Shown in pieces: positions 22,442 to 54,399 of a stretch of DNA of 64,000 nucleotides; the stretch's first letter is position 1, and the number at the start of each line of letters is the position of its first letter. Position numbers and translations under genes: made by a program. The notes beneath the pieces were generated by a model, which saw only the letters and a program-made list of their open reading frames with translations, searched no databases and had not been told where the DNA came from. Source of the stretch: Piedraia hortae CBS 480.64 (Eukaryota); NCBI GenBank assembly GCA_010093745.1, contig MU005959.1, positions 176,270-240,269 on the forward strand, in the 5' to 3' direction.

Positions 22442-22531
22442 TCCTCCGTGGCGCAATTGGCTAGCGCGTTCGGCTGTTATTGAGATACCAGTTGTACCGG
22501 AAGGTTGGTGGTTCGAGCCCACCCGGGGGAG
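22442..22531 (+). tRNA. tRNA-Asn(GTT) with 16-nt intron (22480-22495)
   Basis: TCCTCCG/CGGGGGA acceptor stem, GCGC D-stem, TTCGG-CT-GTT-A anticodon arm, GGTGG-TTCGAGC-CCACC T-arm, T5 terminator. Confidence 0.95.
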
Positions 22532-31805: not shown

Positions 31806-31994
31806 ATGTACGATTAGCCAGAATAATGCCTACGTGTGACGAGAGGGATGTCTGTATATAAAAAACCAGGACGATTGGGTCAGGGGCAAGTGTACAATAG
31901 CATCAAACATCAACCCACCCCCCACTGTAGTTGGTCTACCCTAACGCCAAGCGGGGCAACCTCACCCCACCTCCAAGCGATCGCATACTTCTCC

Positions 31995-34900
31995 ATGGCC
32001 TACCTAGCACCCATCCACCGACCATCAAGCATACGACACGCGCTCCGCCTCAACCTTACCTCCCCCACCTCCACGGACCTCGTCATCGCCAAATCCAACC
32101 GTCTCGAAATCTGGTCCCCGTCATCCGCGTCCTCAGAGGGCTACACCCTCCTCCACTCTTGTACCCTCTACGGCAGGATCCTCCTCCTCGAATGGATCCG
32201 CCCATCATCCAGCACGAACGACCATCTCTTCGTCGTCACAGACCAATACAACTACTTCACCCTCAGCTGGGACTCTGAGCACCACACGCTAAAAACCTCG
32301 CGCGAATACGTCTGCTTCGCGGAAAAAGCCGCGCGGGATGGACAGTTTGGAGACCGCGTGCGTGTAGATCCGACAGGGAGGTTCATGGCGATTGAATGTT
32401 ACGAGGGGATCGTGAATGTGCTCCCGCTTACGCGGGCACCGAAGAAGGGGAAGCAGAGGGTTGGAGGGGAGGAAGTTGTGGTTGAGGTCCAGGAGCAGAT
32501 CCCCGTCCGGATTCCAGAGTTGGGTGTTAGGGATTCGTGTTTTGTTGTTTCGAGGGATGATAAGGCGAGGTTGATGTTGTTGTGTGAGGATGGTGATGAC
32601 GTGGAGTTGAAGATGAGGGTTTTGGAGTATGGACCTTCGTTGAAGGGGGAGATGGCTACTGCGGATTTGGAGAGGGTGGAGAGGGTTGAGGGGAGGGTTG
32701 AGGCCGGGGCGAGTCATCTAATTCCACTTCCGTTGGGGGTGTTGGTTTTGGGGGAGACGAGTATTGCGTATGCGGATGGGAAGAAGGTTGTGACGTCGCA
32801 GCCGCTTGAGGAGCCGACGGTCTGGGTGGCGTGGTGTATGATCGATAACCAGCGGTATGTCCTCGCAGATGACTTTGGACGCGCGTTTATTGTGCTGGTT
32901 TTGGTTGGTGAGAGTGGGGCGTATACGGGCCATTTGCTTAAGAGGCTTGGCAGTACGAGTCGCGCGAATGTGATGGTTTACCTTGGGGAGGGGAGGCTTT
33001 TTGTGGGCTCGCATCAGGGAGACTCGCAGGTGGTGGAGATGGTCGAGGATGGGTTGAATGTTATCCAGACTTTCAGCAACCTCGCGCCCGTCTTGGATTT
33101 TACTGTCATGGATCTGGGGAATCGTTCCCCCGATGCGATTGTTAATGAGTTTTCGTCAGGTCAGGCGAGGATTGTTACGGGATCGGGGGCGTTTGCCGAT
33201 GGCTCGTTGAGGTCAATACGCTCGGGTGTGAACCTGCAAAGGGTTGGGAGCCTTGGTGATATGGGAGCGCCTATCGAGGCCCTTTTCAGTCTACGACGTG
33301 GAGCAAGTGCCGATACCCTGCTCATAAGTTCGGCTGCTGGGTCACGAGTCTTTTGCTTCGACTCAGAAGGGAACGTAAACGAAGCTGATGCCCTTGGTGG
33401 CTTGGTTTTGGACGAGCAAACCGTCTATGCGGCAAACGTTGATGATCTTCTCATCCAAGTCACCCCATCTACCGTTCTAGCAACAAACCTGGAGGACGGC
33501 GTAGCTTTTGATTCGTGGCAGCCTCCGACGTCGAAGAGCATCATAGCTGTTGCGGCGGTTGGGGAGAAGCTGCTGATTTCGATCGAGGGAACTCAGTTGA
33601 TTGTCCTGGCTCTCGAGAATGGACACTTCAATGTGCTGGCCGAGAGGACATTCGACGACGATAAGCAAGTCTCATGCATCGCATTCTCACCGAGTGCCCC
33701 GAATGTTTGCTTTGCCGGGTTCTGGTCCAGCGGCGAAGTGTCTAGCCTAGATGTGAAAACGTTGGATACTATTGCAAGTCAACGTGTTGCCGAAGGCGAA
33801 ATTATCCTTCCACGCTCCCTGGCAGTGACCCAAATAGTGTCGAACCAGCCTCCTACACTCCTCGTAGGCCTTGCAGATGGCACTGTGGTTAGTTACCTTA
33901 TCGAGTCCGCCGAGCAGCCTTTTGCAGCCCGGAGAAGCATTATCCTCGGGGCACAACAACCAGAGCTCGCCATCATTCCTCGTAGCGACTCTGGAACGGA
34001 AAACGTCTTTGTCTCTTCGGAATACTCGTCCCTCATATACGGGTCAGAAGGACACATTGCGTACTCTGCCATCACCGACGAAGACGCACAGAGGGTCTGC
34101 AGCTTTGACTGTGAAGCTTTTCCTGGTGCAATTGCCATGGCGGTCGATTCAGAAGTGAAATTGGCCATCATCGGCGAGGAGCGCATAACGAAGATTCAGA
34201 CTTTAAAAGTGGGCGAATCCGCACGCAGGATGGCGTACAGCGGTGCCTACAAGGCCTTTGGGCTGGGCTGCGTTAAACGGAGCATCGTTGGTGAAGACGA
34301 AGTCCTAGAAAGCCACTTCAAGCTCGTCGACGAAGTCACGTTCAAAGTCCTTGACACATACCCCTTTAACCCGGACGAACTGGTCGAAAGCGTGATTCGA
34401 TGTGCGTTCGAAGATGAAGACACTGACAATGCCAGAGACCGGTTCGTGGTGGGAACCGCACGTCTCGACGACAGCGAACCGGGGGCGAACGAAGGCGGAA
34501 TATACATATTCGAGATCGACGCTCAACGCAAGCTGAAAGTAGTGTGTGTGCATAACACGTATGCCCCGGTTAGATGTCTTGGCATCTGCCACGACCACAT
34601 CGTAGCTGGTCTGGTCAAGACGGTTGTCATATACGAATCCCGCACGGAATCCAATGGTCTTAGGCTCAGTAAGAAAGCAGCCTACCGAACCTCTACAGCA
34701 CCGATCGATCTCTGTGTGAGCGCTGATCACAACACCATCGCCGTTGCCGATCTAATGAAATCCATAACCATCCTCAACTTTGACCCCGCAACTTACGACT
34801 TGACTGAAACCTCTCGACACTTCGACTCAATCTGGACAACAGCCGTAGCGGCCGTCGGCCCTCCAGCAGGAGAAACTACCCCAAGCTACCTCCTCTCTTC

Positions 34901-35372
34901 TGCCTCAGGTCGCCTCATCCTCCTCCAATCCAACACCACAGGCGCCACGGCCCTTGATCGCCGTCACCTCGAGCCCATTAGCGAAATGTCCCTAGGCGAG
35001 GCCATTAACCGCATCCATCCGCTATCCCATAACCTCCACCCCACCTCCTCAGCCATCGTCCTACCCCGCGCTTTCCTCGCTACCGTCAACGGCGGGGTCT
35101 ACATCTTTTGCCACATTGCCGAAGGGAAGAAAGATCTCCTAATCCGTCTCCAAACAGCACTTGCGCGGAGAGTCACTTCGCTGGGCGGTCTTTCGTTTAA
35201 TTCCTGGAGGGGCGGCGGAAACGAATCTGGCCCTGTAAGGTTTGTGGATGGTGAGCTCGTTGAAAGGTTTTTGGAAATGGATCCGGAAATGATGCAGGAA
35301 ATCAGTGCAGAGGTCGACATGGACAGTGTGAAGGTTCGGGAGATTGTAGAGGAGTTGAGGAGGGTTAGATAG
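31995..35372 (+). CDS. DDB1: DNA damage-binding protein 1 (CUL4 adaptor)
   Basis: MAYLAPIHRPSSIRHA start, KSNRLEI, FVGSHQGDSQ, NLAPVLDF, GQARIVTGSGAFADGSLRSIRSG, VADLMKSI, RFVDGELVERFL. Confidence 0.93.
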   Translation: MAYLAPIHRPSSIRHALRLNLTSPTSTDLVIAKSNRLEIWSPSSASSEGYTLLHSCTLYGRILLLEWIRPSSSTNDHLFVVTDQYNYFTLSWDSEHHTLKTSREYVCFAEKAARDGQFGDRVRVDPTGRFMAIECYEGIVNVLPLTRAPKKGKQRVGGEEVVVEVQEQIPVRIPELGVRDSCFVVSRDDKARLMLLCEDGDDVELKMRVLEYGPSLKGEMATADLERVERVEGRVEAGASHLIPLPLGVLVLGETSIAYADGKKVVTSQPLEEPTVWVAWCMIDNQRYVLADDFGRAFIVLVLVGESGAYTGHLLKRLGSTSRANVMVYLGEGRLFVGSHQGDSQVVEMVEDGLNVIQTFSNLAPVLDFTVMDLGNRSPDAIVNEFSSGQARIVTGSGAFADGSLRSIRSGVNLQRVGSLGDMGAPIEALFSLRRGASADTLLISSAAGSRVFCFDSEGNVNEADALGGLVLDEQTVYAANVDDLLIQVTPSTVLATNLEDGVAFDSWQPPTSKSIIAVAAVGEKLLISIEGTQLIVLALENGHFNVLAERTFDDDKQVSCIAFSPSAPNVCFAGFWSSGEVSSLDVKTLDTIASQRVAEGEIILPRSLAVTQIVSNQPPTLLVGLADGTVVSYLIESAEQPFAARRSIILGAQQPELAIIPRSDSGTENVFVSSEYSSLIYGSEGHIAYSAITDEDAQRVCSFDCEAFPGAIAMAVDSEVKLAIIGEERITKIQTLKVGESARRMAYSGAYKAFGLGCVKRSIVGEDEVLESHFKLVDEVTFKVLDTYPFNPDELVESVIRCAFEDEDTDNARDRFVVGTARLDDSEPGANEGGIYIFEIDAQRKLKVVCVHNTYAPVRCLGICHDHIVAGLVKTVVIYESRTESNGLRLSKKAAYRTSTAPIDLCVSADHNTIAVADLMKSITILNFDPATYDLTETSRHFDSIWTTAVAAVGPPAGETTPSYLLSSASGRLILLQSNTTGATALDRRHLEPISEMSLGEAINRIHPLSHNLHPTSSAIVLPRAFLATVNGGVYIFCHIAEGKKDLLIRLQTALARRVTSLGGLSFNSWRGGGNESGPVRFVDGELVERFLEMDPEMMQEISAEVDMDSVKVREIVEELRRVR

Positions 35373-35711
35373 ACCCGTGTATGATTAATGGTAAAAAGAG
35401 GATACGGTTTTTTTTTTTTCTTTCTCGGGTGTACAATGTCCTTTGCTAGGTGGAAATAGCATTTTACAGTGCATATCAAACTGCCATGAACAATAACCAC
35501 CTGTGGTTTGTGTGAATTCCGAGAGAGAAAGATTATCCCCAATCCCTGGCACATTTCGTTTCCCAATCGTCCTTCTCGAATTCATCCATTCCACTAGTTT
35601 CACTCGCATGCAGAAATATAGTTCTACGAACGACCCATGAACGTTGCCATCACCATCCTCAATTTTCATAACAAACAAATACCTCTCTCTCATCTCCAAC
35701 AACATGAAAAC

Positions 35712-35791
35712 GGTTCTATAGTGTAGCGGTAAGCACGCTGGATTTTGATACAAAAGTTCCAGAGACCCCGGTTCGAACCCGGGTAGGACCT
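35712..35791 (+). tRNA. tRNA-Gln(TTG) with 8-nt intron (35749-35756)
   Basis: GGTTCTA/TAGGACC-T acceptor stem, CTGGA-TT-TTG-A[tacaaaag]T-TCCAG anticodon arm, CCCGG-TTCGAAC-CCGGG T-arm, T5 terminator. Confidence 0.93.
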
Positions 35792-36006
35792 TATTTTTGT
35801 ATATCTCCGCCAATTTTTTTTGCATGCATAACTATCATCTACGAAGAAGGAAAGCAGCAAACTGTGGTTGTTTTCTATTATTCGTCGTTGCGGCCAAAAC
35901 CTACGGTAAAGTGGATGCTGCACGCGGGGTTAATTCCGCGTATGGGGATTATTCAGCGGGTGTTGCAAGATCAACCCCGCGTGCTAGATTCATAGAGGGG
36001 CAAAAA

Positions 36007-37350
36007 ATGCCGAAGCGGAATCGTGGGTATGAGGATAAGACGAAGGGTGGGAGGGTGAGTAAGAAATCTAAGATGGAAGAGGGGAAGGGAGGGAGGGATG
36101 CTTTGCTTGGGAAGGGAAAGGGGAAGGGGAAGGGGACTGCTTCGTTTGGGAAGAGGAAGAGTGGGAAGAATGGGAAGAAGGATACGCGTGGGCAAGAGAA
36201 AGGAGGCGTCAGGGCGTCCGCTCAAAATGTGGTGAGGGATGAGGCAGAAGGAGGGCCGGGTGAGAAACCTGTGGACGAGGAGATTGCGCCGACGGTATCC
36301 ACTCCGACGATACTCGCTACCGCGCTCGGTGAGGAGAGTGAGCTGCCCATAGAAGATGATATCACGCCTAAGCCGAAACCAGCTGCTCCGACGGTGACCT
36401 CTACCGCGCTCCTTGGGGGGTACGAGAGTGAAGAGGAGGTTAACGATGCGATGGAGGAGGAGGGGCGGGGGGATCTTGGTGGGAGGATGAGGGTTGTTGT
36501 GGGGGATGATGATGAGGAAGAAGAGGAGGAGGAGGGACGGGGTGACCTCGGCGGAGAACCGAGAAACGATGGCGAGCAGGAGGGTCTGAATGCCGAAGAA
36601 AAGAAAGATCCCTCCGATGATGAAGAGTCAGCAGGGGCATTCGAATCCGCAAGAGAAGCGTTCAGTCATGACGACCACTCCCCCGCCGAAGACGCAAAGA
36701 CCAGCACCATCGACACATTATTCGCCAAACGCGAACCGCCCAAATCAGCCCTCGAACAAGCCAAAGCAGCACGCAAATCGGGCGTTGTGTATATGTCCCG
36801 CGTGCCGCCATACATGAAGCCGCATACGCTTCGCCATTTCCTCACTCCTCACGCACCTTCAGGACTAGGGCGCATCCTCCTCATGCCGGAAACGCGTGCC
36901 GCGCGGAGGTTACGCTTACGCAAAGGGGGGAATAAGAAGAAGGTTTTCACCGATGGATGGATCGAGTTTGTGCGTAAGAAAGAGGCCAAGGCGGCTGTTG
37001 AGTTGTTGAATGGGAATATCATGGGCGGGAAGAAGGGGAATTTCTACCATGATGATTTGTGGAATTTGAAGTATTTGACGGGTTTCAAGTGGAGTCATTT
37101 GACGGCGCAGATTAAGGATGAAGAGGCTGAGTTTGAGGAGATGATGAGGGAGGATTTGAGAAGGATGAAGGATGAGCACAATAAACTTGTTGCGAATGTG
37201 GAAAAGGGGAAGATTGAAGCGAGGATTGAGAAGAAGAAGGGACGTAGAGATGGGGCCGTGAAAAGATCGTTTAAACAAAAGGAGGGGAGGAATAGAGATG
37301 AGGAAAAGGTTGAGGAGGGGTTGATGCCTGCTTTGGGGAGGATTTTCTAG
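36007..37350 (+). CDS. ESF2: Pre-rRNA processing protein Esf2 (ABT1 family)
   Basis: KSGVVYMSRVPPYMKP, GGNKKKVFTDGWIEF, MGGKKGNFYHDDLWNLKYLTGFKWSHLTAQI. Confidence 0.92.
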   Translation: MPKRNRGYEDKTKGGRVSKKSKMEEGKGGRDALLGKGKGKGKGTASFGKRKSGKNGKKDTRGQEKGGVRASAQNVVRDEAEGGPGEKPVDEEIAPTVSTPTILATALGEESELPIEDDITPKPKPAAPTVTSTALLGGYESEEEVNDAMEEEGRGDLGGRMRVVVGDDDEEEEEEEGRGDLGGEPRNDGEQEGLNAEEKKDPSDDEESAGAFESAREAFSHDDHSPAEDAKTSTIDTLFAKREPPKSALEQAKAARKSGVVYMSRVPPYMKPHTLRHFLTPHAPSGLGRILLMPETRAARRLRLRKGGNKKKVFTDGWIEFVRKKEAKAAVELLNGNIMGGKKGNFYHDDLWNLKYLTGFKWSHLTAQIKDEEAEFEEMMREDLRRMKDEHNKLVANVEKGKIEARIEKKKGRRDGAVKRSFKQKEGRNRDEEKVEEGLMPALGRIF

Positions 37351-37610
37351 CCTCATTGGGATCGTTTGAGTTGATCACTAGATGTGTTTCCTTATCATCA
37401 CCTTCTCAATAACAATAATAACCGATATTCAAGCTTCGGGGCATTTTTGGGTGTCTATCCGTGGTTCCGCCTCACCTCCCCCACTCCTGTCATACTGACA
37501 TAGCTCGGCCCGTGCCGGACAGGTGCATCGTGATCTCATGCGGGGCAGCGATCATGCACAACCATTTCTAGGGCCAGGTGCCTGCCTATCCAATTTCTCT
37601 CCAACCCAAA

Positions 37611-38761
37611 ATGCGAACCATCATCCTCCCCATGGGCCCTCCCGGCTCAGGCAAAAGCACACTAACCAACGGCCTGCAACAATTCCTGACAGCTCTCGGC
37701 CGACCCTGCGACGTCGCCAACCTGGATCCTGCAAACGAAAACATCCAATACACCTGCATCTTTGACGTGCGGGATCTCGTCAGCGTGCAGGAAGTCATGG
37801 AGCAGCACGGCCTAGGCCCAAACGGCGGGGTTCTCTGGGCTATGGACGAAGTCGAGCATAATCTCGAGGAGTGGCTACTCCCACGAGTGGAAAACTGCTC
37901 AGAGACCCTAATCCTCGACCCTCCCGGCCAACCGGAACTGATGATCCATCATACCGCCCTCCCCCGGATCCTGGAAAGGCTGGAGAAGGAGGGTAATCGC
38001 GTGCGTGATTTCTGAAATGATACTGCCAGTGACTCATACCTATAGGTTAGATTGTCGTCGTGCAGCTTATTGATTCGGTGGTTCTTACCAGACCGTCGCT
38101 CTATCTCAGCAGTTTGCTCATCTGTGTGAGAGGGATGCTGCACCTGCCGTATCCGTTGGTGAACGTGCTCACGAAGATGGATAATCTCAAGGCTGTGGGA
38201 GGTGCGGATCTGCCGTTTAATCTTGATTTTTATACGGAGATGCAGGATTTGCAGCTTCTGATCCCCGCGTTGGAGGCCGAGCAGGCTGATTCGATGGTTG
38301 GGATGGGAAGTGAGAAGTGGAAGGGGCTTAATGAGGCGTTGATTTCTTTGATCGAGGATGCGGGGTTGCTGGGTTTTGAGACGCTGGCAGTTGAGGATAA
38401 GGCGTCTATGGCTTCACTGGTTAAGGCGATTGATAGGGCTAGTGGGTATGCGCTTGCTGGGGCACGCGCGACAGATGAGTTTGGGCGTACGCTGCAGGAT
38501 GAGACTAGTGTGTGGGCTCAGGCTATGAGTGATCATTGGGCGGGAAAGTTGGATATTAGAGATGTGCAGGAGAGGTGGATTGATAGGAAGGAGGAGTTCG
38601 ATGAGATGGAACGGAAGGCATGGGAGGAGGAGGCCCGTCTCGCGGGGGCGCTGGATAAGGATGGGGATGTGCCTGTGGATGAGGAGGAGGATCCTCTTAT
38701 TGCTGAGCAGAGGAAGTGGATGGAACAGCAGAGCCAAGGTACCAAGGTTGTGAGGAAATGA
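37611..38761 (+). CDS. GPN2: GPN-loop GTPase 2; exons 37611-38000, 38051-38761
   Basis: GPPGSGKST P-loop, NLDPANE, LGPNGG, PGQPEL..HH, VNVLTKMD, LPFNLDFYTE. Intron 38001-38050. Confidence 0.88.
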
Positions 38762-38877
38762 GGGAGCTAGAACACAACGGTCTACTGTATTCCATATTAC
38801 CCAAACCATCAATGGGAAATCCGCAGAGCTGAGCTCCACAGTCAACCGGTCAAAACTTTTTGATAGACACGATCGAC

Positions 38878-40386: not shown

Positions 40387-40579
40387 CGTTCTCGTTCAAA
40401 AAGATTTGGTGGTTGTCAAGCCTGGGTGGATTTTTGATCGTGTGCTCAAAATGGGAGAATTTCGCCCTGACTGACACCCAACCTGTCAAATCAAAAAAAA
40501 AAAAAAAAACGCACTCCTCAAATCGTGAGCAACACAACACCCCGCACAGAAGGCCGGAAGGGTCCACCAAAAAAGAGCA

Positions 40580-40669
40580 CTCCCCCGGGTGGGCTCGAAC
40601 CACCAACCTTCCGGTACAACTATTATCGCAATAACAGCCGAACGCGCTAGCCAATTGCGCCACGGAGGA
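40580..40669 (-). tRNA. tRNA-Asn(GTT) with 16-nt intron, second copy
   Basis: Exons identical to 22442-22531; intron ttgcgataatagttgt; T6 terminator. Confidence 0.95.
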
Positions 40670-40755
40670 ATTTGTACTCAAAATTTGAGCAACATTGCAT
40701 AGATACATACTCTCACTACCCTCGCTAGCGCAGACAATTACCGCACCCCAACGTA

Positions 40756-41973: not shown

Positions 41974-42156
41974 ACGTGCAGTCATGGGGCAGCAGAATTG
42001 AACATCATTGCAAGAAGAAAGCACACAGAATAATAGACGACAGAATTGCCAAATTATAGCACCGCTTCAGAAGGAAACAAGGCAGCAAAGACAAGACAGT
42101 ACAGAAAATGCAGCAATTTCTCAAGAGCAGGGAGACATAACATCATTGAGATCCAC

Positions 42157-44189: not shown

Positions 44190-44300
44190 CCCCCCCCCCC
44201 CCCCCAAAAAAAAAAAAAATATTCCGCGAAGCTCAACGACGCAAAAACAGCCCAGCCCAGCTATAGCAAAGCAAAGCAAAGCAAAGCAAAGCATAGCACA
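44190..44300 (+). repeat. C16-A14 tract and (GCAAA)5 microsatellite upstream of TSR2
   Basis: C16A14 at 44190-44219; GCAAA x5 at 44266-44290 plus two degenerate copies. Confidence 0.9.
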
Positions 44301-44337
44301 ACACAGCTTCACGCAGCGCTATCTATACACACCCATA

Positions 44338-44901: not shown

Positions 44902-44912
44902 TGGCGGGTTTT

Positions 44913-47159: not shown

Positions 47160-47346
47160 CGTGTCTGCAAAGTCGCTCCCAAAATATCATCCCCACGAGC
47201 GCGAAAAAGTTCTTAGGGTTACGGCAAAAGTGGGGATAAGGTCCGGCCCGACCCGAAGACGCAGCAACCACACCAAAATCTTTACAACCAAACATTCTCT
47301 GAATCGAACCTCCTCCCTACCTCAGCGCGAAGAATAATAAAGAAAA

Positions 47347-47666
47347 ATGATTATCCCAATCCGCTGCTTCTCCTGCGGAAAGGTATTTTCTCTCCCCCCC
47401 CCACCCCCCCTTCCCCCGCACAGCGTCTCACTCTACTGACGATGTAGGTCATCGCAGACCTCTACGAGCGCTATGTGGAATTGATTGGGTCTTCGAACGA
47501 CGGCGAGATTCTCACGGATGGAGATGCGATGGATCAGATTGGACTTACGCGTTATTGCTGTCGTCGCATGATGCTGACCCACGTAGACCTTATTGAGAAG
47601 TTGTTGAGGTATAATCCCGCTGAGAGGGAGATAATTCGGCAGCAGGGGAGTGGGCAGCAGAGGTAG
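47347..47666 (+). CDS. RPB10: RNA polymerase I/II/III shared subunit Rpb10; exons 47347-47382, 47448-47666
   Basis: MIIPIRCFSCGK|VIADLYERY..RYCCRRMMLTHVDLIEKLLRYNP. Intron 47383-47447. Confidence 0.97.
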
Positions 47667-47872
47667 ACTGAGCAGAAGAGGTGGATGGTGGATGCTATAA
47701 CTGGAGGGCATGGTTTGAGGGGAGGGCGGACTGTATGGTACTTTTGATGTGATGTGATACCCCCGGCAGTTCATTGAGAGATCCCGTTTGTTGGGCTGTA
47801 TCTGAAAGATGATAGTTGTGAGATGATCCCACCATGTTATAGATGCAAATGAAACAACAGATAAACGTCTAA

Positions 47873-50029
47873 TCATACAATATCCAACTCATCATCGTCG
47901 TCACCGAATCGAAGGTCGGCACCACAACCACTCTCCCTGCCAGGTTCCCTGATCCCCTTCCCAGCAATCATGAATCTCGCCTTCTTGGACGGACTCTGCA
48001 CACCACTATCCCTCGACAAGGGTCTCATAGCCGTCTGCCTCACCTCCGTCTCAGGCGTCTTAACCCTCAACAACTCACTTTTCCTCGCACCACCCCACCC
48101 CACCGCCTCCCTCCCGGTTGTCGGAACCGCCCCAAGCCCAAAATGAAACTTCCTATCCTTCGCCGCACTCAACTGCACCCGCGAAGCATCGTTTGCCAAC
48201 AGCCTCAACTCCGCCGCCTTAGGCTTCTGAAAGATTCCACTCTCCGGCGCGGAGCGTGCCGACATAGCACTATTCGACCGGGCGAGCATGTATTCCTTGC
48301 CCACACTGCTAGGCATCTTATCCAACGCACGCTGGAGATCCCTTTCCTTTTGCGCAGCAGCCAACCTCTTCCGACTCGCCTCTTCAGTACTCAAATTCGT
48401 CAGCTTACTCGAATCCTCCGCATCGAGAAGCGAAGCCGCACTCCCCCCCAGCCCATGCTGGTGATGATACAGGGTTCCATGCTCCCTCGAATTCGTAACC
48501 GTCGAGCTACGTTTCTCTCTCGCCCTACCCTTCCCCCCCGCGTTAACCCTCCGCCACATGGTATTAACCTCCATCCTCTCCTTCCTCTGCTTCTCAACGA
48601 ACAGGTTAAGGTGAAATTCACAAATCTCCGTAGATCTCCGATCGATCCACGCGTTACACGGCTGACCGTCTTTCTTGATGCTGGTGCAGTACCCCAAATC
48701 CCTCGCCGTTCCGATCTCCATGATTTTGTCATCGCTGGAGGAGAGTTTAAGGCTGAATTTACCGCTATGGCGGTTCCCTTTGGGCGGCATGATTCCCGGG
48801 TTCAGGATAGCGAGGAGGGTTCCGGGGGTAAGTTTCCAGAACTGGTCGAAGCCGGTGTCGAAGAGGAAGAGATCGATTTCCCATGCTAGATCGCAGAGTT
48901 TGAGGACCATGAATTTGTTTCGCGGCGCATCGGCGTCGATTTGGGGTTTCCCCGTTTCGGAGGTTTTGTGTTTGAATGCTTGATCGTAGGGGGATGATTT
49001 GGATGCGAGAATGGCGAGGATGACGATGTCTTCTTCGCAGTCGGGAGGCTCGTAGTCGGGTGAAACGACTTCCTTGAGGAGACGAGGGAGGGTGTAGATT
49101 TGTTTGGTTTCTAGTTCGCGTGCGAGGAGGGCGTGGGGGACGTTGCGTTTGCTGAGGTGGAGTTCGGAGAAGGGTTCGTAGCTTGCTTCGTCCTTGTCAT
49201 CGGGCTTGGAGGTATCGGTGTTTGAGCGTTGGGATTGAGGTCTGCTTGTTGAGCCGCCGGAGCTGGGCCGCAGTTGCATTGTGCTGAAGGTTTTGCTTCG
49301 GCCGCGCTCGATGCGCTCCGCCTTGGCTTCCTTCTCGTCGGCCTGCTTTAGACCGGCTTGGAGACGCTCGGTGAAGCTCTTGGGGCGAGAAGTATCGGGA
49401 CGTTTGGTGGGTACGCGCTTGGGAGGCTTCACCTGTCCGTCTCGGGCCCGTTTGAGGGATACGTTTGAGGCACCGGCGGTGGTATCCAGGCCCAGCCGCT
49501 TGCGCGCGGGTGAGAGTTGTTCCTGCGGTGCAATGGCTCTCTCTTTTGCCGGCGACATGGGCACCTGGACATGCGTCTCGGACTGAGCGCGCGAATGCTT
49601 TGGCCGATCGACCGACTCTTGCCTCTTCCTTTTCTTATCTTTTAGTCGCTGCCTCTGCTTCAGACGGATTTTGATCTCATCCAGCTTGAGCTGGATATCC
49701 TCCTCGTCTTCTTCATCTTGTCCCAGCTCTTCTCCCCGCTGTCGCTTTCGCTCAATCTCCTTTTGCTTCCTGCGCAGCGCAATTTCCTCCAGTCGGAGCT
49801 CCTCGTCGGCCTCGTCGGATTCGCTGCTGCTCATGGAGATTTGGCGCATGGCAACTTTGGTTGGACTGGGGCTGATGGAGCGTGCGGGAAAGCGCGACTG
49901 ATGGTCCTGCCACTTCTTCCGTCCGCTGGGTGACGACAACAACGCCTGGAACGGCGACTTGGGCGGCCATGCTGCGCGACTAGCATCGGGCGACGCCGGC
50001 ACACGCGGAGACTCGCGCAACACCACCAT
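47873..50029 (-). CDS. MCM10: DNA replication factor Mcm10
   Basis: WPPKSPFQALLSSPSGRKK, EPFSELHLSKR, OB-fold KFMVLKLCDL..AILNP, zinc finger DLGYC..KKDGQPC..WID....EICEFH. Start placed at MVVLRESP. Confidence 0.9.
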   Translation of the reverse strand: MVVLRESPRVPASPDASRAAWPPKSPFQALLSSPSGRKKWQDHQSRFPARSISPSPTKVAMRQISMSSSESDEADEELRLEEIALRRKQKEIERKRQRGEELGQDEEDEEDIQLKLDEIKIRLKQRQRLKDKKRKRQESVDRPKHSRAQSETHVQVPMSPAKERAIAPQEQLSPARKRLGLDTTAGASNVSLKRARDGQVKPPKRVPTKRPDTSRPKSFTERLQAGLKQADEKEAKAERIERGRSKTFSTMQLRPSSGGSTSRPQSQRSNTDTSKPDDKDEASYEPFSELHLSKRNVPHALLARELETKQIYTLPRLLKEVVSPDYEPPDCEEDIVILAILASKSSPYDQAFKHKTSETGKPQIDADAPRNKFMVLKLCDLAWEIDLFLFDTGFDQFWKLTPGTLLAILNPGIMPPKGNRHSGKFSLKLSSSDDKIMEIGTARDLGYCTSIKKDGQPCNAWIDRRSTEICEFHLNLFVEKQRKERMEVNTMWRRVNAGGKGRAREKRSSTVTNSREHGTLYHHQHGLGGSAASLLDAEDSSKLTNLSTEEASRKRLAAAQKERDLQRALDKMPSSVGKEYMLARSNSAMSARSAPESGIFQKPKAAELRLLANDASRVQLSAAKDRKFHFGLGAVPTTGREAVGWGGARKSELLRVKTPETEVRQTAMRPLSRDSGVQSPSKKARFMIAGKGIREPGRESGCGADLRFGDDDDELDIV

Positions 50030-50376
50030 GGCTTGTGTCGTCTCGTTGCGCCGCATGACAACCGTCGTCTGGCAGATCTGTGGCTTCTGATTGGCTACCG
50101 GGCCACCGCCTTGTTGAACCGTTGACGCTAGCCGAATGTGGCTGGCGTGAGACGACTTCTCGGGAACGTCATCCAAAGGACCATTGGTGATGGCCCAGAG
50201 AGACGCCAGGAACAGTCGAGTCTGAATGCAGAAGACGATATAGACTATGGAATCGTATATAGATTGCCGAATACATGGTTAGACGCCTGCCCACCCTCTA
50301 CTTGTCCAAGCGTGTAATTGCGACTTCCAACCTCAGGCGGTCTCGCTCTACCGAGACAGCTACATGACAGCGGAAG

Positions 50377-51411
50377 ATGCCCCCAACCCGCCGCTCGCAA
50401 AAGGCGCGCGGTCCTGCTGCTGCCGAAGCCGAATCTTCTGCGGTCTCTCCGTCCGTAGACAACCCCCCAACGCTCCACATCCTCCCGCGCGGCCGCTCTG
50501 CTACTGCGTGCATCGTCACCCTCCCCGACCCCATCACGCCCACCAAAGCAGCCCAATACTTCGTTGACCCCATCCTCGGCTTCTACGAATTCACCCAAAC
50601 CTCCTCCCCCAAGAACGTCCCCAAATCCTGGCTCCTCGTCGACGACAACCAAGGCTACACTCTCCAATCCCCATCCCTGGTAATCGCAACCCCCATCGAC
50701 CCTCTCTTCCTCCTCCTCCCCGCGCTCTGGACCGGCGCGATCGACAACACCTTTGCGCCTCTCCACGACCGCCTCTTCTTCAGCGACAGCGACACCCGCT
50801 ACGCGCACCTCCGACCTCTCCTCGGCCCCGAACTCGAATCCCAACTTGAGTCTCGCCTCTCAACTATCTGCAACTCCCAAGCCGTCGGCGACGAAGTCTA
50901 CTACAACCTCTCCCTGGACAAACTAGCCTCCGTTCTGCTATTCAAAACCCAAAACCTCAACCTCCCGCCAAGCCTTCATAAAAAGCTCGTGGACGAACCT
51001 CTCGAAGTTCCCGGAATCGAATCCGCCATTGTTTCAGAAGACATCAAAGCCCTCCTCCGCACGAGAGCCGCGCTGGGCTATATCCTCCGCAACTACATCA
51101 CCGAGTCTTTACGACCGCACTTATGGACGTTATTCGCTAAAGCGATTGACTTTGCCCCCCTGGACGCGCACCTGCAACATGTAGAGAAGCTCAGGGCCGA
51201 AGCGCTGGCGCGACAGTCGTTGACGGATAATCTTAGCCGGAAACGTGGCGGCTTGGGTGATGAAGAGGCTATGGATAGGGCGGAGACGAAGAAGAGGAAG
51301 AAAGAGGAAGAGGAAAAGAATAAGAAGAATGCCTCGCTAGGGGTGAAGAGACTCATGAAGGCTGATACTACCGGTATGAAGAAGTTGAGCAGTTTTTTTA
51401 AATCTGCTTAG
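50377..51411 (+). CDS. RNH202: Ribonuclease H2 subunit B
   Basis: IVTLPDP, FYEFT, KSWLL, IATPIDPLFLLLP, C-terminal S.GVKRL.KADTTGMKKLSSFF (PIP-box-like). Confidence 0.88.
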   Translation: MPPTRRSQKARGPAAAEAESSAVSPSVDNPPTLHILPRGRSATACIVTLPDPITPTKAAQYFVDPILGFYEFTQTSSPKNVPKSWLLVDDNQGYTLQSPSLVIATPIDPLFLLLPALWTGAIDNTFAPLHDRLFFSDSDTRYAHLRPLLGPELESQLESRLSTICNSQAVGDEVYYNLSLDKLASVLLFKTQNLNLPPSLHKKLVDEPLEVPGIESAIVSEDIKALLRTRAALGYILRNYITESLRPHLWTLFAKAIDFAPLDAHLQHVEKLRAEALARQSLTDNLSRKRGGLGDEEAMDRAETKKRKKEEEEKNKKNASLGVKRLMKADTTGMKKLSSFFKSA

Positions 51412-52082
51412 CTGCTGAGGCCGAGATGGTTGGGTTGGTTGGTTGAGTCTGTTGTGCTGGGGTCTAGGATTGTTGGTGGGTGTGTATGAGACGGAGGGAG
51501 GGCTCACTGCTTGATTCGGTGGTTTGTTTTTCTTTCTTTTCCTTGTTCTTGGAGGCTTGGTCGAGCACCACGTCGCCGATGATGCTGCTTGTTGATTGCA
51601 GGCCACCTTGGGCCCGTGTTAGTGCATTTGTGGTGTGGCTGTGGACGGCGTACCGCCTTTGCCTTTCCAGGCGTCTTTCATTGCTTCGGTCATTAGGAAT
51701 GTTAGGTGTCAATGGGGATGTCAATGTCGACGTGACAAGGGGGACAATGTCATGCGGTCGATCATGATGCAAGTGTTTCAATCGATTGGTTATCCATAAG
51801 CTGATCGGCAGCCTTGTATCCCCCTGAAGATCGATTACATCACTGGAACCCTCTTACATAAACTCTTCGAGCAGCTTCTCGAGCTTCATCCTTCAAATAT
51901 GGCACAATCACTGTAAATAATCAAGTACGTGCAACTTATGATATCTTGGCCGACTGCTCGTTCCTTGTCACTGCCGTCTAGGGTTCGGCTTGGAACGCAC
52001 TCTGCCAAGAAACCGCACAGAATTCAAAATTGTATACCCATCAGTCGCACAAGCTTCCCCAGCCATAACTTGACTCCAGACA

Positions 52083-53429
52083 ATGGCCCAAGTTCACCTA
52101 GACATAGACTACCAAGACGCCTACGTCGAACCTCTCATCCGCTCAGCTCTGAAAGCCCGGCTCCCGCACGGAAGCTATGTCTTCTTCCTCTCCCCAGCCG
52201 AATTAACCCCAGACACCCCCACCCTCGAATGGAAACAATACGAATCCCTCTCCTTTCCAAGCATCCTCTCCCACCCACAAACCTTCCTTGCAAACAGCTA
52301 CATCATTCGCAAAGCGTTGATCCGCAAAAACTTTCTCGCCGAGACAGTGCGCTACTGGGTTGCGAAGCACCCATCCTCCATCCTCGCTTCCGGCATCAAA
52401 CCCTCTCTAGACCTAGAAGTCGACTACGCCGAGTTCCTCGACGAGGCGCTTTACGAAGCGTACGAGCTAAACGAAAGCTTCACTCGGAACGAGCACCAGC
52501 AGGAGAAAGAGTGGTGGATCCTGAAACCAGCTCTTACAGACGGTGCGAACGGCATAAGACTCTTTTCATCCTTGGATGAATTGAGGGGCATTTTCGAGGA
52601 GTGGGAAGAATCTACCTCCTCCTCCGATGATGACGATGATGACAGTGAGATCGTAAACTCGGAAACAGGCCCCCAGACGAATCATACGAAAGGGAGTGAA
52701 GGAATAATAACCTCCCAACTCCGCCACTTCACCGCCCAGCCGTACATAACCCCACCCCTCCTTTTCCCTCAGGTCGGGAACAGAAAGTTCCACATAAGGA
52801 CGTACGTCCTCGCTGTCGGCGCACTGAAAGTCTACGTGTACAGACACATGCTTGCCTTGTTCGCGCAGAAAGAGTACATAACCCCCACAGCGCAAACTGA
52901 AATCGACCTGCGCGCGCATTTGACGAATACATGTTTCTGGAAGGCTGGAAATAAGCGGAGCGACACCGGTGAAAATTCCACAACACTCCTAGCCCCAGAT
53001 CCGGCTGAGAAAATGGTCATCCCCCTCTCCTCCCTCCCACCAACGCACCCAACTCTTGGCTCCTGGCTCCCTGCTACACTCTCACAGATAAATACCCTCA
53101 CATCCGAACTCTTCCGCGCCGCGGCCCAGATGACAACGAACTTTCAGCCCCTCCCCAATGCGTTTGAGATTTTTGGGGTCGATTTCCTCGTCGATGCAGA
53201 TGGGAGGGTTTGGCTATTGGAAGTCAATGCGTTTCCGGATTTTAGACAATCGGGGGAAGAGGCGAAGTGGGTTGTTGAGGGGTTGTTGGGGGGCGTGGTG
53301 GATGTGGGGGTAAGGCCATTTTTTGGATTGGATGCTCAAGAGAAAGGTGGGGATGTGGGTAGGGATGCTTCGCAAGGGGGAGATGGGGATATGCTCCTGG
53401 CTTTGGATTTGGATTTGGGGAGGCGGTAG
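52083..53429 (+). CDS. Tubulin-tyrosine ligase-like ATP-grasp protein (Pby1-like)
   Basis: ANSYIIRKALIRK, WILKPALTDGANGIRLFS, RKFHIRTYVLAVGALKVYV, HLTNTC, FEIFGVDFLVD..WLLEVNAFPDF. Confidence 0.9.
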   Translation: MAQVHLDIDYQDAYVEPLIRSALKARLPHGSYVFFLSPAELTPDTPTLEWKQYESLSFPSILSHPQTFLANSYIIRKALIRKNFLAETVRYWVAKHPSSILASGIKPSLDLEVDYAEFLDEALYEAYELNESFTRNEHQQEKEWWILKPALTDGANGIRLFSSLDELRGIFEEWEESTSSSDDDDDDSEIVNSETGPQTNHTKGSEGIITSQLRHFTAQPYITPPLLFPQVGNRKFHIRTYVLAVGALKVYVYRHMLALFAQKEYITPTAQTEIDLRAHLTNTCFWKAGNKRSDTGENSTTLLAPDPAEKMVIPLSSLPPTHPTLGSWLPATLSQINTLTSELFRAAAQMTTNFQPLPNAFEIFGVDFLVDADGRVWLLEVNAFPDFRQSGEEAKWVVEGLLGGVVDVGVRPFFGLDAQEKGGDVGRDASQGGDGDMLLALDLDLGRR

Positions 53430-54399
53430 GGGGTTTATCAAGGGAGGGGATTACGGGGTTCATATGCCAGAAGACGTCGACCTTACGCTCAAGGCGGCTT
53501 ATCGCGCCTTGCACTGGCTGATAATGAAATATACACGGTGATAAAGGACTCTTACTCAATGTCTTCCACAAGCGAGGGAATCAGGACCTTCAAAACACCC
53601 ATTCTATGTTAACACATCCGCTTTCCAGACTTGAAAAAACGACACGCTGAGGACAGCCATGAAAGGATAAAATTCCATCCGGCGGGCAGTAAACTCCCTA
53701 CTACAACAGGCATGCTCAATCTTCCGATTCCCGCCAACCATACTTCAGCATACTCCAACAGCTTACCATTACACGACACTAATGGCCGGCGACAAGCAAC
53801 TGAATGGCAATCGCCCGCATTCTATTCTCCCGCCGTACATATCCAAACGAGCGCTTGGATGCGGCAACTTGTTCGCAATTCCTAAAAATGTTCGATAAAG
53901 ACAACAACAAGTTCTCTGGCGAGTCTTATGAAGAGTCCCGAAATAAGGCACGGAGATCGAAAACATGCTGAGAAACCTTATGGTAAGAATGCCAAGATTC
54001 GGGTTTCTCTAAAATAGAGAGATGATGCAGACTCTCTCAGATGACCTTCTATACGGGGAAAAAGCGGCTGACCAGGCCTCACATTATAACTACCACGACA
54101 GACCTTCTAGACTCTGAACCAGAAAATAAGTCAGTCCGCTGAACACTGATTTACGCTCAAAGCGAAATGGACTGCTTAGGAGTGGCTGAGCCACCGCATC
54201 GTATCGTGTCCAAGCCAGCTGGACAAAACCTGAGCTGCGAGACCAAACTACAACTGATCAAGCTGCATCCCGAACTGGGATGCGAGGAAAAAGTGGTAGT
54301 TACCCTATACTTGTGTCCAAGCCAGCTGGCCATAATCTGACCTACGAGATCAAACTGCATCCAAAACCGAGAGTTGAAAATAGAAAACGGGGATCACTG

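Follow-up and report, generated by a model that had tools for sequence, protein, structure and literature searches.

The window, a 64,000-nucleotide stretch of DNA from a Dothideomycete fungus, carries genes along which the plus strand alternates between C/A-rich and G/T-rich blocks. In the ELP4 (PAXNEB) unit (17925..19095, plus strand; Pfam and HMM), the sense strand is C/A-rich at 18256-18723 and G/T-rich at 18724-19095, a tail that extends 76 nt beyond the stop codon at 19019. Third-position G+T rises there from 0.10 (106 codons) to 0.83 (109 codons), with a change point at 18678-18693 covering 6 codons. The protein kinase unit (40474..41786, plus strand; Pfam and HMM) consists of a C/A block (40474-41417) that takes in the promoter and 5'UTR and extends 660 nt into the coding sequence, followed by a G/T block (41418-41786), and third-position G+T passes from 0.22 to 0.86 at 41413-41446. 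In the tubulin-tyrosine-ligase (TTL)-family gene (51994..53460, plus strand; direct reading and HMM), C/A blocks at 51994-52331 and 52972-53158 give way at 53158/53159 to a G/T tail (53159-53460) reaching over the 31 nt past the stop codon at 53429, the two steps being +0.71 and -0.65. The RNase H2 subunit B unit (50377..51730, plus strand; Pfam and HMM) has a C/A block at 50459-50984, a flip at about 51100-51245 and a G/T block at 51384-51721 that lies mostly in the 3'UTR (stop codon 51411), while the TSR2 unit (44160..44901, plus strand; Pfam and HMM) is C/A-rich over promoter and 5'UTR (44160-44363), flips at 44467 and is G/T-rich at 44547-44809. The GPN-loop GTPase gene (37572..38800, plus strand, stop codon 38761; Pfam) has an intron at 38001-38050, supported by the joint 38000>38051 in a spliced contig and by GT..AG ends; its exon 1 is weakly C/A-rich and its exon 2 G/T-rich, with a G/T block at 38191-38723 and third-position skew of +0.4 to +0.8. 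Beyond the span first annotated, the same pattern occurs at 230..2177 (plus strand), where the 3' end of PRKCSH flips at 569 and orf1360 has a C/A block in its promoter (910-1280) and a G/T block (1711-2177) that terminates at the stop codon. The orf7987 unit (7674..9052, plus strand) carries C/A blocks in its promoter (7674-7973) and at 8346-8658, a flip at 8709 and a G/T block (8874-9052) that continues past the stop codon at 8964.

On the minus strand, a sense G/T tail appears as a plus-strand C/A block. This is the case for MCM10 (47826..50056; Pfam and HMM), in which the tail block (47826-48218) begins 47 nt beyond the stop codon at 47873, the flip lies near 48664-48721 and the sense strand upstream of it is C/A-rich (plus-strand G/T, 48914-49483). 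At the 3' end of an NTE/patatin gene (61681..62300; Pfam and HMM), the block (61682-61935) starts at the stop codon, and third-position G+T is 0.24 versus 0.83 across a flip at 62049-62055 narrowed to 3 codons. The GH72 glucanosyltransferase gene (42011..43917; Pfam and third positions) shows a weak sense gradient from C/A to G/T, its G/T tail and 3'UTR forming the plus-strand C/A block 42011-42216 called by the HMM.

The simple rule of a C/A-rich 5' part and a G/T tail is broken by four of about 16 skewed genes, namely DDB1, orf35749, MT28 and UTP17, in agreement with the view of the first-pass annotation that a simple 5'-to-3' gradient is insufficient. The true ATG of DDB1 (plus strand) is at 31995, as inferred from its own 1125-aa protein P0001. 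Its 5' unit (31894..33265; HMM) comprises a C/A block (31894-32334), which begins at the poly(A) site of the upstream gene and covers the promoter, the 5'UTR and the first 340 nt of coding sequence, and a G/T block (32335-33265), third-position G+T changing from 0.19 to 0.82 at 32328-32367. Its 3' unit (34728..35472) has a C/A block (34728-35067) and a short G/T tail that stops about 100 nt past the stop codon at 35372. The double flip reported earlier for this gene is thus located at 32331-32335, the extra flip at +340 nt from the ATG by which DDB1 departs from the rule, and at 35161. The MT28 (Methyltransf_28) region, with two units (21814..23723, plus strand; HMM), alternates between C/A (21814-22447 and 22800-23235) and G/T (22448-22799 and 23236-23723), with up steps at 22457 and 23204 and a down step at 22808; it departs by its first G/T block, which begins at a tRNA gene (22441-22533) and spans the ATG at 22652. 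For orf35749 (called ESF2 in the earlier annotation) and UTP17, third-position profiles bear out the G/T-rich sense start previously described. A tRNA-like gene (35712-35791) precedes orf35749 in a unit at 35712..37467 (plus strand), where sense third positions are G/T-rich from near the ATG at 35824, dip to C/A at 36594-36893 and finish with a G/T tail that extends as far as about 37467. Purine-rich, acidic low complexity is a further feature of 36.0-36.8 kb. UTP17/WDR75 (44913..47825, minus strand; Pfam and HMM) is the clearest exception to the gene-end pattern: on its sense strand, G/T predominates across the promoter and the 5' half of the gene, seen as plus-strand C/A at 46719-47422, whereas the 3' end is weakly C/A-rich and lacks a G/T tail. 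A distance of 11 nt separates its stop codon from that of TSR2, with which it is convergent. Finally, nine genes are almost skewless and regionally clustered: eIF3L, CN hydrolase, cyclin-like, orf10842, Ras, Kei1, S10 peptidase, PTP and Abhydrolase_3 (Abh3).

Composition steps and the sites that carry them

The abrupt C/A-to-G/T switching noticed in the first-pass annotation is confirmed as real. We measured the difference in G+T minus A+C between adjoining 300-nt windows and took as threshold the 95th percentile of the maxima from 200 permutations. In the 64 kb, 19 'up' (C/A to G/T) and 20 'down' (G/T to C/A) steps were significant, the largest reaching 0.75 versus a permutation maximum of 0.37. 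At 150-nt windows 11 up and 8 down steps passed, the down steps being often as sharp as the up steps. Sixteen of the 18 flip points proposed earlier have a significant up step no more than 95 nt away; the other two, 38000 and 43200, are sub-threshold as steps, but third codon positions shift at both. Three up steps (569, 1498 and 7974) were absent from that list. The four hand counts per 60 nt given with it proved exact (18481-18540, C30/G8; 18961-19020, C6/G27; 48061-48120, C32/G5; 49081-49140, C6/G29). A 3-state HMM assigned 8.3 kb to C/A blocks and 5.4 kb to G/T blocks in the window, with block lengths of 150-950 nt, and called no blocks in three shuffles of the window. Block coverage was 0.39 in 31.9-53.46 kb, and 0.01, 0.00 and 0.00 at 9.0-17.9, 24.3-31.2 and 53.6-61.5 kb, the stretches described as weak or devoid of the pattern. 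The term 'periodic' was overstated: up-flip spacings in the focal region, obtained by hand from the step coordinates and the two sub-threshold points, lie between 0.7 and 3.0 kb, which is about the distance from one gene to the next.

Fourfold sites are A.20 C.59 G.11 T.10 in sense-C/A blocks (79% C+A, 21% G+T) and A.10 C.11 G.51 T.28 in sense-G/T blocks (79% G+T), so that the composition of one block type nearly mirrors that of the other. In 150-nt bins the G+T skew of third positions goes up to +/-0.8, while positions 1 and 2 stay mostly within +/-0.3, and third-position change points narrow some flips to 3-14 codons. GC and TA skews are coupled with r=0.20 over all positions, GC being dominant, and with r=0.53 at third codon positions. 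Of the block sequence, 2797 nt (C/A) and 855 nt (G/T) fall outside annotated coding sequence, and the skew reaches into promoters, 5'UTRs and 3'UTRs. The strand-asymmetric process proposed in the first-pass annotation was expected to show at synonymous and intergenic sites; synonymous sites are indeed the most skewed, and non-coding DNA is included. This supports a process acting on DNA or transcripts and not on proteins. The amino acids of DDB1 bear a lineage-specific imprint of the skew, as a mutation-like process would leave, its G/T block in the window being enriched in G/V/F/W/C-type residues relative to 90 orthologues (contrast 0.152 versus -0.001 +/- 0.039).

Relation of the flips to genes in the window and in other fungi

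With 27 coding-sequence intervals as reference, several of them ORFs without family support, coding sequence contains 16 of 19 up flips and 6 of 20 down flips (Fisher p=0.0011). When the interval from -50 to +350 nt relative to a stop codon was considered, it held 11 of the 20 down flips, at 28-319 nt past the stop (null mean 2.1; none of 5000 random draws reached 11), and none of the 19 up flips, 13 of which precede a stop by 100-1000 nt (null 6.3, P=0.002). At stop codons ([-300,+50]), 18 of 23 genes have a positive sense skew, with a mean of +0.108 that was attained in none of 2000 circular shifts (0.00 +/- 0.029). Around ATGs ([-200,+300]), 16 of 19 genes have a negative sense skew, with a mean of -0.09 (P=0.0035). 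Transcript anchoring was judged from ORF ends and one poly(A) end, at 31918 in a cDNA-like contig, which lies 24 nt from the down flip at 31894. ELP4 and the TTL-family gene carry G/T tails though no downstream gene was found within 2-3 kb, indicating that the tails are independent of a neighbouring gene, and the HMM called no blocks in the stretches without recognisable genes (19.1-21.8 and 53.5-61.7 kb). The gene-independent sources suggested earlier, such as origins, break hotspots or open chromatin, do not accord with flips that follow gene ends and gene-poor DNA that is block-free. Since the flips track coding sequence, stop codons and gene ends, their positions are largely predictable from position within transcripts, although not fully.

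The tail flip of DDB1, about 60 codons before the stop, recurs in DDB1 of unrelated fungal contigs. Among 47 dereplicated metagenomic contigs with orthologues (37-54% identity), the 37 covering the site show a mean third-position step of +0.44 at codon 1065 (z=6.8), while internal blocks of one gene vary between lineages. On the DDB1 contigs, 71 ORFs with a length of 300 aa or more show GC skew increasing on the approach to the stop, with values of -0.086 and +0.139, and dropping afterwards; the successive values for 15 ORFs of the window are -0.122, +0.331 and -0.232.

Polarised substitutions come wholly from fungi other than that of the window. Singleton substitutions in skewed DNA of another fungus, represented by a clade of five sequences, were strand-asymmetric, which is again mutation-like: the G/T-rich strand had A>G at 16/230 versus T>C at 4/335 (p=0.0003), for an implied equilibrium G+T of 0.64 versus 0.67 observed. 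C>T was not elevated on this strand in that clade (1/173 versus 16/478 for G>A), which speaks against an exposed G/T-rich strand undergoing simple deamination of its cytosines. Transition strand asymmetry was significant in only one of nine sequence pairs (pooled OR 1.09, p=0.33).

Possible origin of the strand asymmetry

The leading idea of the first-pass annotation, that each C/A-to-G/T jump is a bidirectional replication origin with a G/T-rich leading strand, fits the polarity convention of bacterial and mammalian origins and the sawtooth shape at 32.3-35.2, 44.5-47.5 and 48.7-51.2 kb. It is contradicted by the gene anchoring, and we consider it extremely improbable. The 19 jumps in 64 kb amount to about one per gene and are 0.7-3.0 kb apart in the focal region, whereas all fungal origin spacings known to us are far wider. 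Moreover, 16 of 19 jumps fall within coding sequence with a GC content of about 0.50-0.60, which is not AT-rich, the blocks stop within 950 nt at equally sharp reverse flips, the distance to the stop codon predicts the jump position, and other fungi have the DDB1 jump at the corresponding position. Meiotic double-strand breaks in intergenic nucleosome-free spacers would instead expose 3' tails for several hundred nt on each side, where damage or repair synthesis would leave G/T to the left and C/A to the right, intragenic flips being the meeting points of neighbouring hotspots. Judged by the geometry of resection, the down flips have the polarity that deaminated, resected 3' tails would give; 14 of 20 down flips lie outside coding sequence, and block lengths of 150-950 nt are comparable to meiotic resection tracts, which are of that order. 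However, the skew does not decay from the spacers and is often strongest at the intragenic flip (ELP4 third positions: -0.8, -0.8, +0.4, +0.8), intragenic flips are narrowed to a few codons, and the sharp up flips have the polarity opposite to that predicted by resection. Spacers of the quiet regions show no blocks, many fungi flip at the same DDB1 codon region, and the C>T result from the sole polarisable lineage speaks against it as well, which makes this explanation very unlikely.

Selection on transcript or DNA structure seems somewhat less improbable, though still unlikely. Here, the need for unstructured mRNA or slow early elongation would keep 5' parts C-rich and G-poor, and R-loop-assisted pausing and termination would keep 3' parts G-rich. 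An adaptive hypothesis, based on CTP limitation, has been put forward by McLean and Tirosh 2011 (PMC3315797); the blocks are tied to transcript ends with the G/T tail halting near the poly(A) site, the tail-flip position is conserved among distant fungi, and a functional boundary yields sharp edges more easily than a diffuse mutational gradient. Against this, many ordinary genes of the window have no blocks, the internal blocks of the same gene differ by lineage, and promoter DNA upstream of the likely transcription starts is skewed too. The mirror-image compositions suit a DNA-level strand process, and the singleton substitutions of the other lineage imply an equilibrium near the observed skew, a result that fixation bias could also produce. 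Specific complementarity between the C/A and G/U arms is absent as well, with |z| <= 1.02 versus within-arm shuffles in five of six units, the TTL-family unit (z=-3.5) being the exception.

We therefore favour, as the probable explanation, that the flips are the edges of strand-asymmetric composition blocks anchored to Pol II transcription units and caused by a strand-asymmetric, transcription-linked substitution bias. It is observed directly that the flips are anchored to gene ends, that the skew is concentrated in synonymous and non-coding positions and that other fungi share the tail flip. In a typical unit, the sense strand is C/A-rich over the promoter, the 5'UTR and the 5' part or body of the gene, and G/T-rich over the final 200-900 nt; this tail comes to an end close to the poly(A) site, at the stop codon or a short way past it. 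Such a pair reads identically on either strand, so each gene in any orientation gives one plus-strand C/A-to-G/T flip and each intergenic spacer the reverse flip, which results in the quasi-regular spacing seen in the first-pass annotation. The bias may differ in regime between initiation and termination, or sense and antisense transcription may dominate in different parts of the gene; it would act over long periods while purifying selection holds the proteins. Candidate molecular steps include R-loop exposure, transcription-coupled repair or another process. The four genes outside the simple rule count against this explanation; moreover, the flips, at 3-14 codons, are far sharper than a graded polymerase state would suggest, and the regional clustering of skewless genes is not predicted by a universal process of this kind.

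McLean and Tirosh 2011 (PMC3315797) describe fungal genes whose two ends differ in the sign of their GC skew, in linear ramps, together with flat AT skews and comparable effects at degenerate and non-degenerate sites. The C/A-rich sense 5' ends and G/T-rich 3' tails of the window match these skews and represent the same phenomenon. In contrast to the ramps, the pattern of the window is step-like, near-saturated and much stronger, with flips spanning a few codons; third positions dominate, and TA skew co-varies with GC skew instead of being flat. The window displays a step-like version, of unusual intensity, of a fungal gene skew that has been little studied.

Compositional blocks and their genes

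Steps in the composition of the plus strand were located by comparing G+T with A+C in 300-nt arms, using the 95th percentile of permutation maxima as the threshold. In the window, 19 switches from C/A-rich to G/T-rich DNA (up flips) and 20 switches in the reverse sense (down flips) exceeded this threshold, and the largest observed step was 0.75 against a permutation maximum of 0.37. The four hand counts of base composition made in the first-pass annotation were all exact, and 16 of its 18 flip points have an up step no more than 95 nt away, those at 38000 and 43200 being sub-threshold. A three-state HMM called 13.7 kb of C/A or G/T blocks in the window and 0 in three shuffles; block coverage was 39% in the span 31900-53460, on which that annotation had focused, and 0-1% in the three stretches it had named as quiet. 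The jumps from C/A to G/T that it described are therefore present, but they are not one-sided: down flips are often equally sharp, which indicates that the DNA is arranged in blocks.

At third codon positions the skew reached up to +/-0.8 in 150-nt bins, whereas first and second positions together stayed mostly within +/-0.3. GC and TA skews correlated weakly over all positions (r=0.20, the signal being mainly GC skew) and more strongly at third codon positions (r=0.53, 233 bins). On the sense strand, the fourfold sites of C/A blocks consist of A.20, C.59, G.11 and T.10, those of G/T blocks of A.10, C.11, G.51 and T.28, and those outside blocks of A.19, C.32, G.28 and T.21. Because the two block types nearly mirror each other in composition, the skew looks like a property of DNA strands and not like a codon preference. 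Absence of the skew from synonymous and intergenic sites had been named at the outset as an observation that would count against a strand-asymmetric process; the opposite is clearly found, with 21% G+T at fourfold sites of C/A blocks versus 79% in G/T blocks, and with 3.65 kb of block DNA situated in promoters, UTRs and spacers, beyond the annotated coding sequence.

The transitions are narrow. In ELP4, third-position G+T passes from 0.10 (106 codons) to 0.83 (109 codons) with a change point confined to 6 codons, and the flip widths in the NTE/patatin gene (NTE), the kinase gene and DDB1 are 3, 12 and 14 codons, respectively. No motif common to the flips was visible by eye in the +/-60 nt around 13 of them.

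The window is gene-dense DNA of a filamentous ascomycete, in which ∼20 ordinary genes could be given Pfam families. These include ELP4/PAXNEB, a Methyltransf_28 protein (MT28), a tyrosine phosphatase, DDB1, a GPN-loop GTPase, a protein kinase, a GH72 glucanosyltransferase, TSR2, WDR75/UTP17, MCM10, RNase H2B, a tubulin-tyrosine-ligase (TTL)-family protein and an NTE/patatin protein. The nearest named relatives of DDB1 belong to Dothideomycetes (Recurvomyces, Elasticomyces, Friedmanniomyces, Hortaea, Baudoinia, Zymoseptoria and Cercospora) and share merely ∼50-52% identity with it, so that no close relative with sequence data is present in the searched collection. A 1255-aa ORF at 28038-31805 (+) carries an Abhydrolase_3 domain confined to its first ∼280 residues, the remaining ∼950 having no family. 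Between 53600 and 61600, ∼8 kb contain no ORF >156 aa, no Pfam family above the cut-off and no skew blocks; the sole match is a weak Nicastrin-like one at 57113-57442 (-) (E=0.0036), and the stretch may represent an intron-rich minus-strand gene (57.1-60.2 kb) or non-coding DNA. When 41 short ORFs from gene-poor stretches were searched against Pfam, none gave a family over the cut-off. We also noted stop-free frames of 160-338 codons running antisense to real genes in C/A-rich strands, at 47873-48889 (+), 46491-47216 (+), 40370-40879 (-) and 35099-35581 (-). They are likely composition artefacts and are potentially misleading for gene callers.

Anchoring of the flips to gene ends

A C/A block followed by a G/T block is its own reverse complement in composition, so an intragenic up flip reads as 5' C/A and 3' G/T on the sense strand whichever way the gene is oriented. 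Coding sequence harbours 16 of the 19 up flips, compared with 6 of the 20 down flips (Fisher p=0.0011). In the interval from -50 to +350 nt of a stop codon we counted 11 of the 20 down flips, all eleven 28-319 nt downstream of the stop (random mean 2.1, with 0 of 5000 draws reaching 11), and none of the 19 up flips, 13 of which precede a stop by 100-1000 nt (P=0.002). Sense-strand skew in [-300,+50] around the stop was positive in 18 of 23 genes, with a mean matched by 0 of 2000 circular shifts; around the ATG ([-200,+300]) it was negative in 16 of 19 genes, with a mean of -0.09 against a null of 0.001 +/- 0.033 (P=0.0035). Averaged over 15 ORFs of the window, GC skew ran from -0.11 to -0.18 over positions +0 to +599 and reached +0.33 in the last 150 nt.

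The G/T blocks found on the sense strand at gene 3' ends (G/T tails) terminate 0-310 nt beyond the stop codon. ELP4 and the TTL-family gene bear such tails although no downstream gene was found for 2-3 kb, which indicates that the tail belongs to the 3' end of the gene itself. Moreover, the HMM called no blocks in stretches without recognisable genes. The periodicity initially reported corresponds to a quasi-regular spacing that follows that of the genes, with 11 protein genes and ∼13 up flips in 21.5 kb. We conclude that the blocks represent the known gene-anchored skew of fungi in an extreme, step-like form.

A sequencing run, X2, was informative for one of these gene ends. At 31918, 113 nt past the stop of the hydrolase gene upstream of DDB1, one of its contigs terminates in a poly(A) run, and the GPN intron 38001-38050 is spliced out in X2. 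Because of the spliced joint and the poly(A) end, X2 was treated as putatively RNA-derived, a run not recorded as RNA whose contigs carry neither strand nor transcript-start information; parts without contig cover were not counted as evidence. The down flip opening the C/A block of DDB1, at 31894, is located near the putative poly(A) end at 31918. Within 31805-31995, the DDB1 ORF has its first in-frame ATG at 31848, ahead of this putative site; the DDB1 protein on record for this organism is 1125 aa long, which sets the real start codon at 31995, <80 nt from the poly(A) site of the upstream gene. X2 derives from the same or a near-identical strain, with merely three clustered differences (40622-40628) within 45 nt of a contig end, and therefore gives no polymorphism spectrum.

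Several genes depart from a simple order of 5' C/A and 3' G/T, and long genes carry additional internal skew units. DDB1 comprises two units, C/A at 31894-32334 followed by G/T at 32335-33265, and then weak C/A to 35067 followed by a short tail. The gene orf35749, initially labelled ESF2, is G/T-rich on its sense strand from the ATG onward, a G/T block spans the ATG of MT28, and UTP17, which lacks a G/T tail, is G/T-rich on the sense strand over the promoter and the 5' half of the gene, its block at 46719-47422 being C/A on the plus strand. Two plus-strand tRNA genes lie exactly at the up flips preceding the odd G/T regions, at 22441-22533 (MT28) and 35712-35791 (orf35749); the other two tRNA genes of the window are on the minus strand, at 1152-1240 and 40579-40670. 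The copies at 22441-22533 and 40579-40670 share 94% identity over 104 nt and seem to contain an intron, their anticodon not being named by ARAGORN, and the minus-strand copy is located at a down flip. Contigs of both sequencing runs break at 40579, which suggests a multi-copy family.

The convergent stops of TSR2 (+) and UTP17 (-), at 44901-44913, are 11 nt apart; TSR2 retains a G/T tail and UTP17 has none. At such a distance the 3' ends overlap, each 3'UTR necessarily reaching into the neighbour's coding sequence, so that both cannot be G/T-rich on their own sense strands. Inside orf35749, the segment 36000-36800 has G>C and A>T and is a purine-rich, acidic low-complexity region, with repeats at which the contigs from either run are interrupted. 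Some of the flipping seen at 36594-36893 is thus only apparent, being due to amino-acid composition and not to G+T/A+C skew. Finally, almost no skew was observed in nine clustered genes, namely those for eIF3L, CN hydrolase, a cyclin-like protein, orf10842, Ras, Kei1, S10 peptidase, the phosphatase and the hydrolase.

The first-pass annotation had attributed the flips to fixed sites such as replication origins or break hotspots, a proposal that their positions do not support, as flips follow gene ends, with most up flips in coding sequence and just over half of the down flips shortly after stops. Upward skew jumps are a feature of bacterial oriC and of the borders of mammalian N-domains, on scales of tens to thousands of kilobases. 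The window has the sharp C/A to G/T jump in common with these, on a scale of 1-3 kb instead. That replication origins lie at the flips is extremely improbable: the expected polarity is present at the 19 up steps and some intervals are sawtooth-shaped, yet any C/A-G/T pair shows such polarity on both strands, and 16 of the 19 up flips occupy coding sequence, the distance of the jumps to the stop codon being set. Moreover, up-flip spacing (0.7-3.0 kb) is too dense for origins, the blocks (≤950 nt) are closed by sharp reverse flips so that skew does not persist over a replicon arm, and the flips are conserved relative to genes. Break hotspots centred on the intergenic down flips, with damage on resected 3' tails, would give the right polarity at those sites but the opposite one at the sharp intragenic up flips; they also predict a decay into the gene, whereas the skew does not fade toward the gene interior and often peaks where the codon-sharp flip within the gene occurs, and we consider them very unlikely.

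Skew and substitutions in other fungi

Metagenome contigs with a DDB1 alignment provided 80 fungal loci (1.07 Mb in all), to which the same HMM was applied. Block coverage ranged from 0 to 31%, the maximum being that of locus L079; 19 of the 80 loci, mostly short ones, had no blocks and 8 had a coverage of at least 15%. Skew strength thus differs strongly among lineages, and the organism of the window is near the upper end. Toward the stop codon, GC skew rose from -0.086 to +0.139 and dropped after the stop in 71 ORFs of ≥300 aa from 47 dereplicated loci; along the same curve, the 15 ORFs of the window started at -0.122, reached +0.331 and fell to -0.232 after the stop.

We projected the third positions of DDB1 orthologues onto the DDB1 protein of the window. 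The strongest recurrent feature is a step from C/A to G/T ∼60 codons before the stop (mean +0.44, 37 of the 47 dereplicated loci covering the site), with z=6.8, a value inflated, like those of the other DDB1 steps, by the phylogenetic relatedness of the loci. Weaker recurrent steps occur near codons 90, 720 and 945. The large early flip of the window's DDB1, at codon 113, has an equal strength in a few lineages only, e.g. L059 and L078, and a strong G/T island near codons 720-800 with a C/A stretch before it is specific to the clade of L002, L004, L006 and L030, the window being without it. These four contigs are the closest metagenomic relatives of the window's DDB1. The recurrence of the tail flip together with the lineage-limited internal features indicates that the tail flip is tied to gene structure over long evolutionary distances and that internal blocks are heritable, yet lineage-specific.

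A substitution bias is favoured, indirectly, by three results: the residues of DDB1, the positions of blocks within the gene, which vary among lineages, and singletons in the clade of contig L050. Compared with 90 orthologues, the window's DDB1 has an excess of G, V, F, W and C (codons starting with G or T) in its G/T block and fewer of these residues in its C/A blocks, a contrast of 0.152 against -0.001 +/- 0.039 that is exceeded by one orthologue. Conserved block positions as a protein-level imprint were rejected, as most of the 90 orthologues are without this contrast. For the singletons, five related contigs (L050, L051, L052, L054 and L055, 96.5-97.6% identical) were polarised by parsimony where local skew was >0.25. 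On the G/T-rich strand of this clade, which belongs to another fungus than the window's species and whose substitutions are not free of selection, A>G changes (16/230) exceeded T>C changes (4/335; p=0.0003), and C>T was not raised (1/173, versus 16/478 for G>A). The ratio of amino-to-keto over keto-to-amino rates predicts an equilibrium G+T of 0.64, the observed value being 0.67. Between L050 and L052, transitions fell mostly on purines of the G/T-rich strand (56/1310 versus 17/1045; OR 2.7, p=0.0002). A general strand asymmetry of transitions in the skewed DNA of other fungi was rejected: it was significant in one of nine pairs (the L050 clade only), with a pooled OR of 1.09 (p=0.33). This outcome and the unraised C>T count against a simple account of the substitutions.

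That selection on the transcript shapes the skew appears unlikely, given that many genes are unskewed, that promoter DNA is skewed too, that internal blocks are lineage-specific and that the two block types are mirror-symmetric. A designed RNA hairpin, in which the C/A arm would pair with the G/U arm, was rejected as a general account, five of six units having |z| ≤ 1.02 against within-arm shuffles. The exception among the six is the unit of the TTL-family gene (52920-53400), whose sense RNA across the flip is more stable than within-arm shuffles (z=-3.5).

Relation to known skews and wider implications

A C bias centred on transcription start sites was reportedly described in plants and fungi by an earlier study, on which the work of McLean and Tirosh builds. 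The gene-anchored skew to which we relate the blocks is the one these authors reported, with GC skews of opposite sign at gene 5' and 3' ends in most of the fungi analysed (McLean and Tirosh 2011, BMC Genomics, PMC3315797). In their description, the coding strand is C-biased at the promoter, the 5' end and most of the gene, and in the 'fourth group', which holds most species, a short G-biased 3' region extends into the UTR; fourfold sites, non-coding flanks and amino-acid usage are all affected, with a species-dependent strength. All of these features are reproduced here. However, their paper presents genome averages with gradual linear ramps, whereas single genes of the window flip within 3-14 codons; an effect of similar size at degenerate and non-degenerate positions, whereas here third positions reach 80-90% of one base class and first and second positions move little; and a flat AT skew, whereas here TA skew co-varies at third positions. 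The ramps, the flat AT skew and the equal size among codon positions are descriptive traits of published averages and not strict criteria. The window further differs from that description by the extra internal units of long genes and by whole gene stretches without the pattern. Sharpness, near-saturated synonymous sites, coupled TA skew, internal units and regional absence exceed the published description. A literature search for later work on fungal intragenic skew gave nothing beyond this 2011 study, the title of which is cited by only three other papers of the searched library.

A second likeness is to GRINS. Both systems have intense, abrupt and positively correlated GC and TA skews with a maximum at third codon positions, intact genes in which G+T-coded and C+A-coded stretches are <1 kb apart, and a shift of amino acids between Gly/Val/Cys/Trp and Pro/Thr/His/Gln. 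However, GRINS are defined as duplicated regions of >500 bp and >80% identity undergoing gene conversion, and the window is without such repeats: a blastn self-comparison of the window gave only the 104-nt tRNA pair and a 47-nt match. The blocks of the window also differ in affecting single-copy housekeeping genes and in being ordered by gene polarity. The GRINS authors do mention single-copy skewed regions and a possible eukaryotic mechanism. By analogy, the likeness hints at a possible general strand-specific process, and the traits of the window that exceed the published fungal description would be compatible with such a process, perhaps a self-reinforcing one.

One form of such a process, to which we give only a small chance, is that the blocks are self-organising 'skew domains' with a putative feedback. 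The G-rich strand would drive a skew-dependent, strand-specific process, for example through RNA:DNA hybrids of the G-rich transcript, be it the sense or the antisense one, and this would push the same strand further to G/T. The outcome would be two stable polarities with codon-sharp walls between them, gene ends merely biasing which polarity wins. If true, skew domains would jointly account for flips in the form of steps, for two block types of mirrored composition, for internal blocks that differ between lineages, for the genes that never 'ignited' and for the signature shared with GRINS. The distribution of third-position skew is strongly over-dispersed (sd 0.196 versus a binomial 0.079); the clean three-peaked distribution predicted by bistability was rejected, the observed one not being cleanly trimodal.

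The gene-anchored skew would have consequences for sequence analysis. Codon-usage measures, dN/dS, phylogenetic models and gene finders assume a homogeneous composition, and if, in ordinary genes, most synonymous sites can be pushed to 80-90% of a single base class and the sign can flip intragenically, such standard assumptions break locally. The long spurious antisense ORFs yielded by C/A-rich strands are an example from the window. A species with a skew as intense and sharp as this one would be a good test case for the candidate processes, which are transcription-coupled repair, R-loops, antisense transcription and selection.
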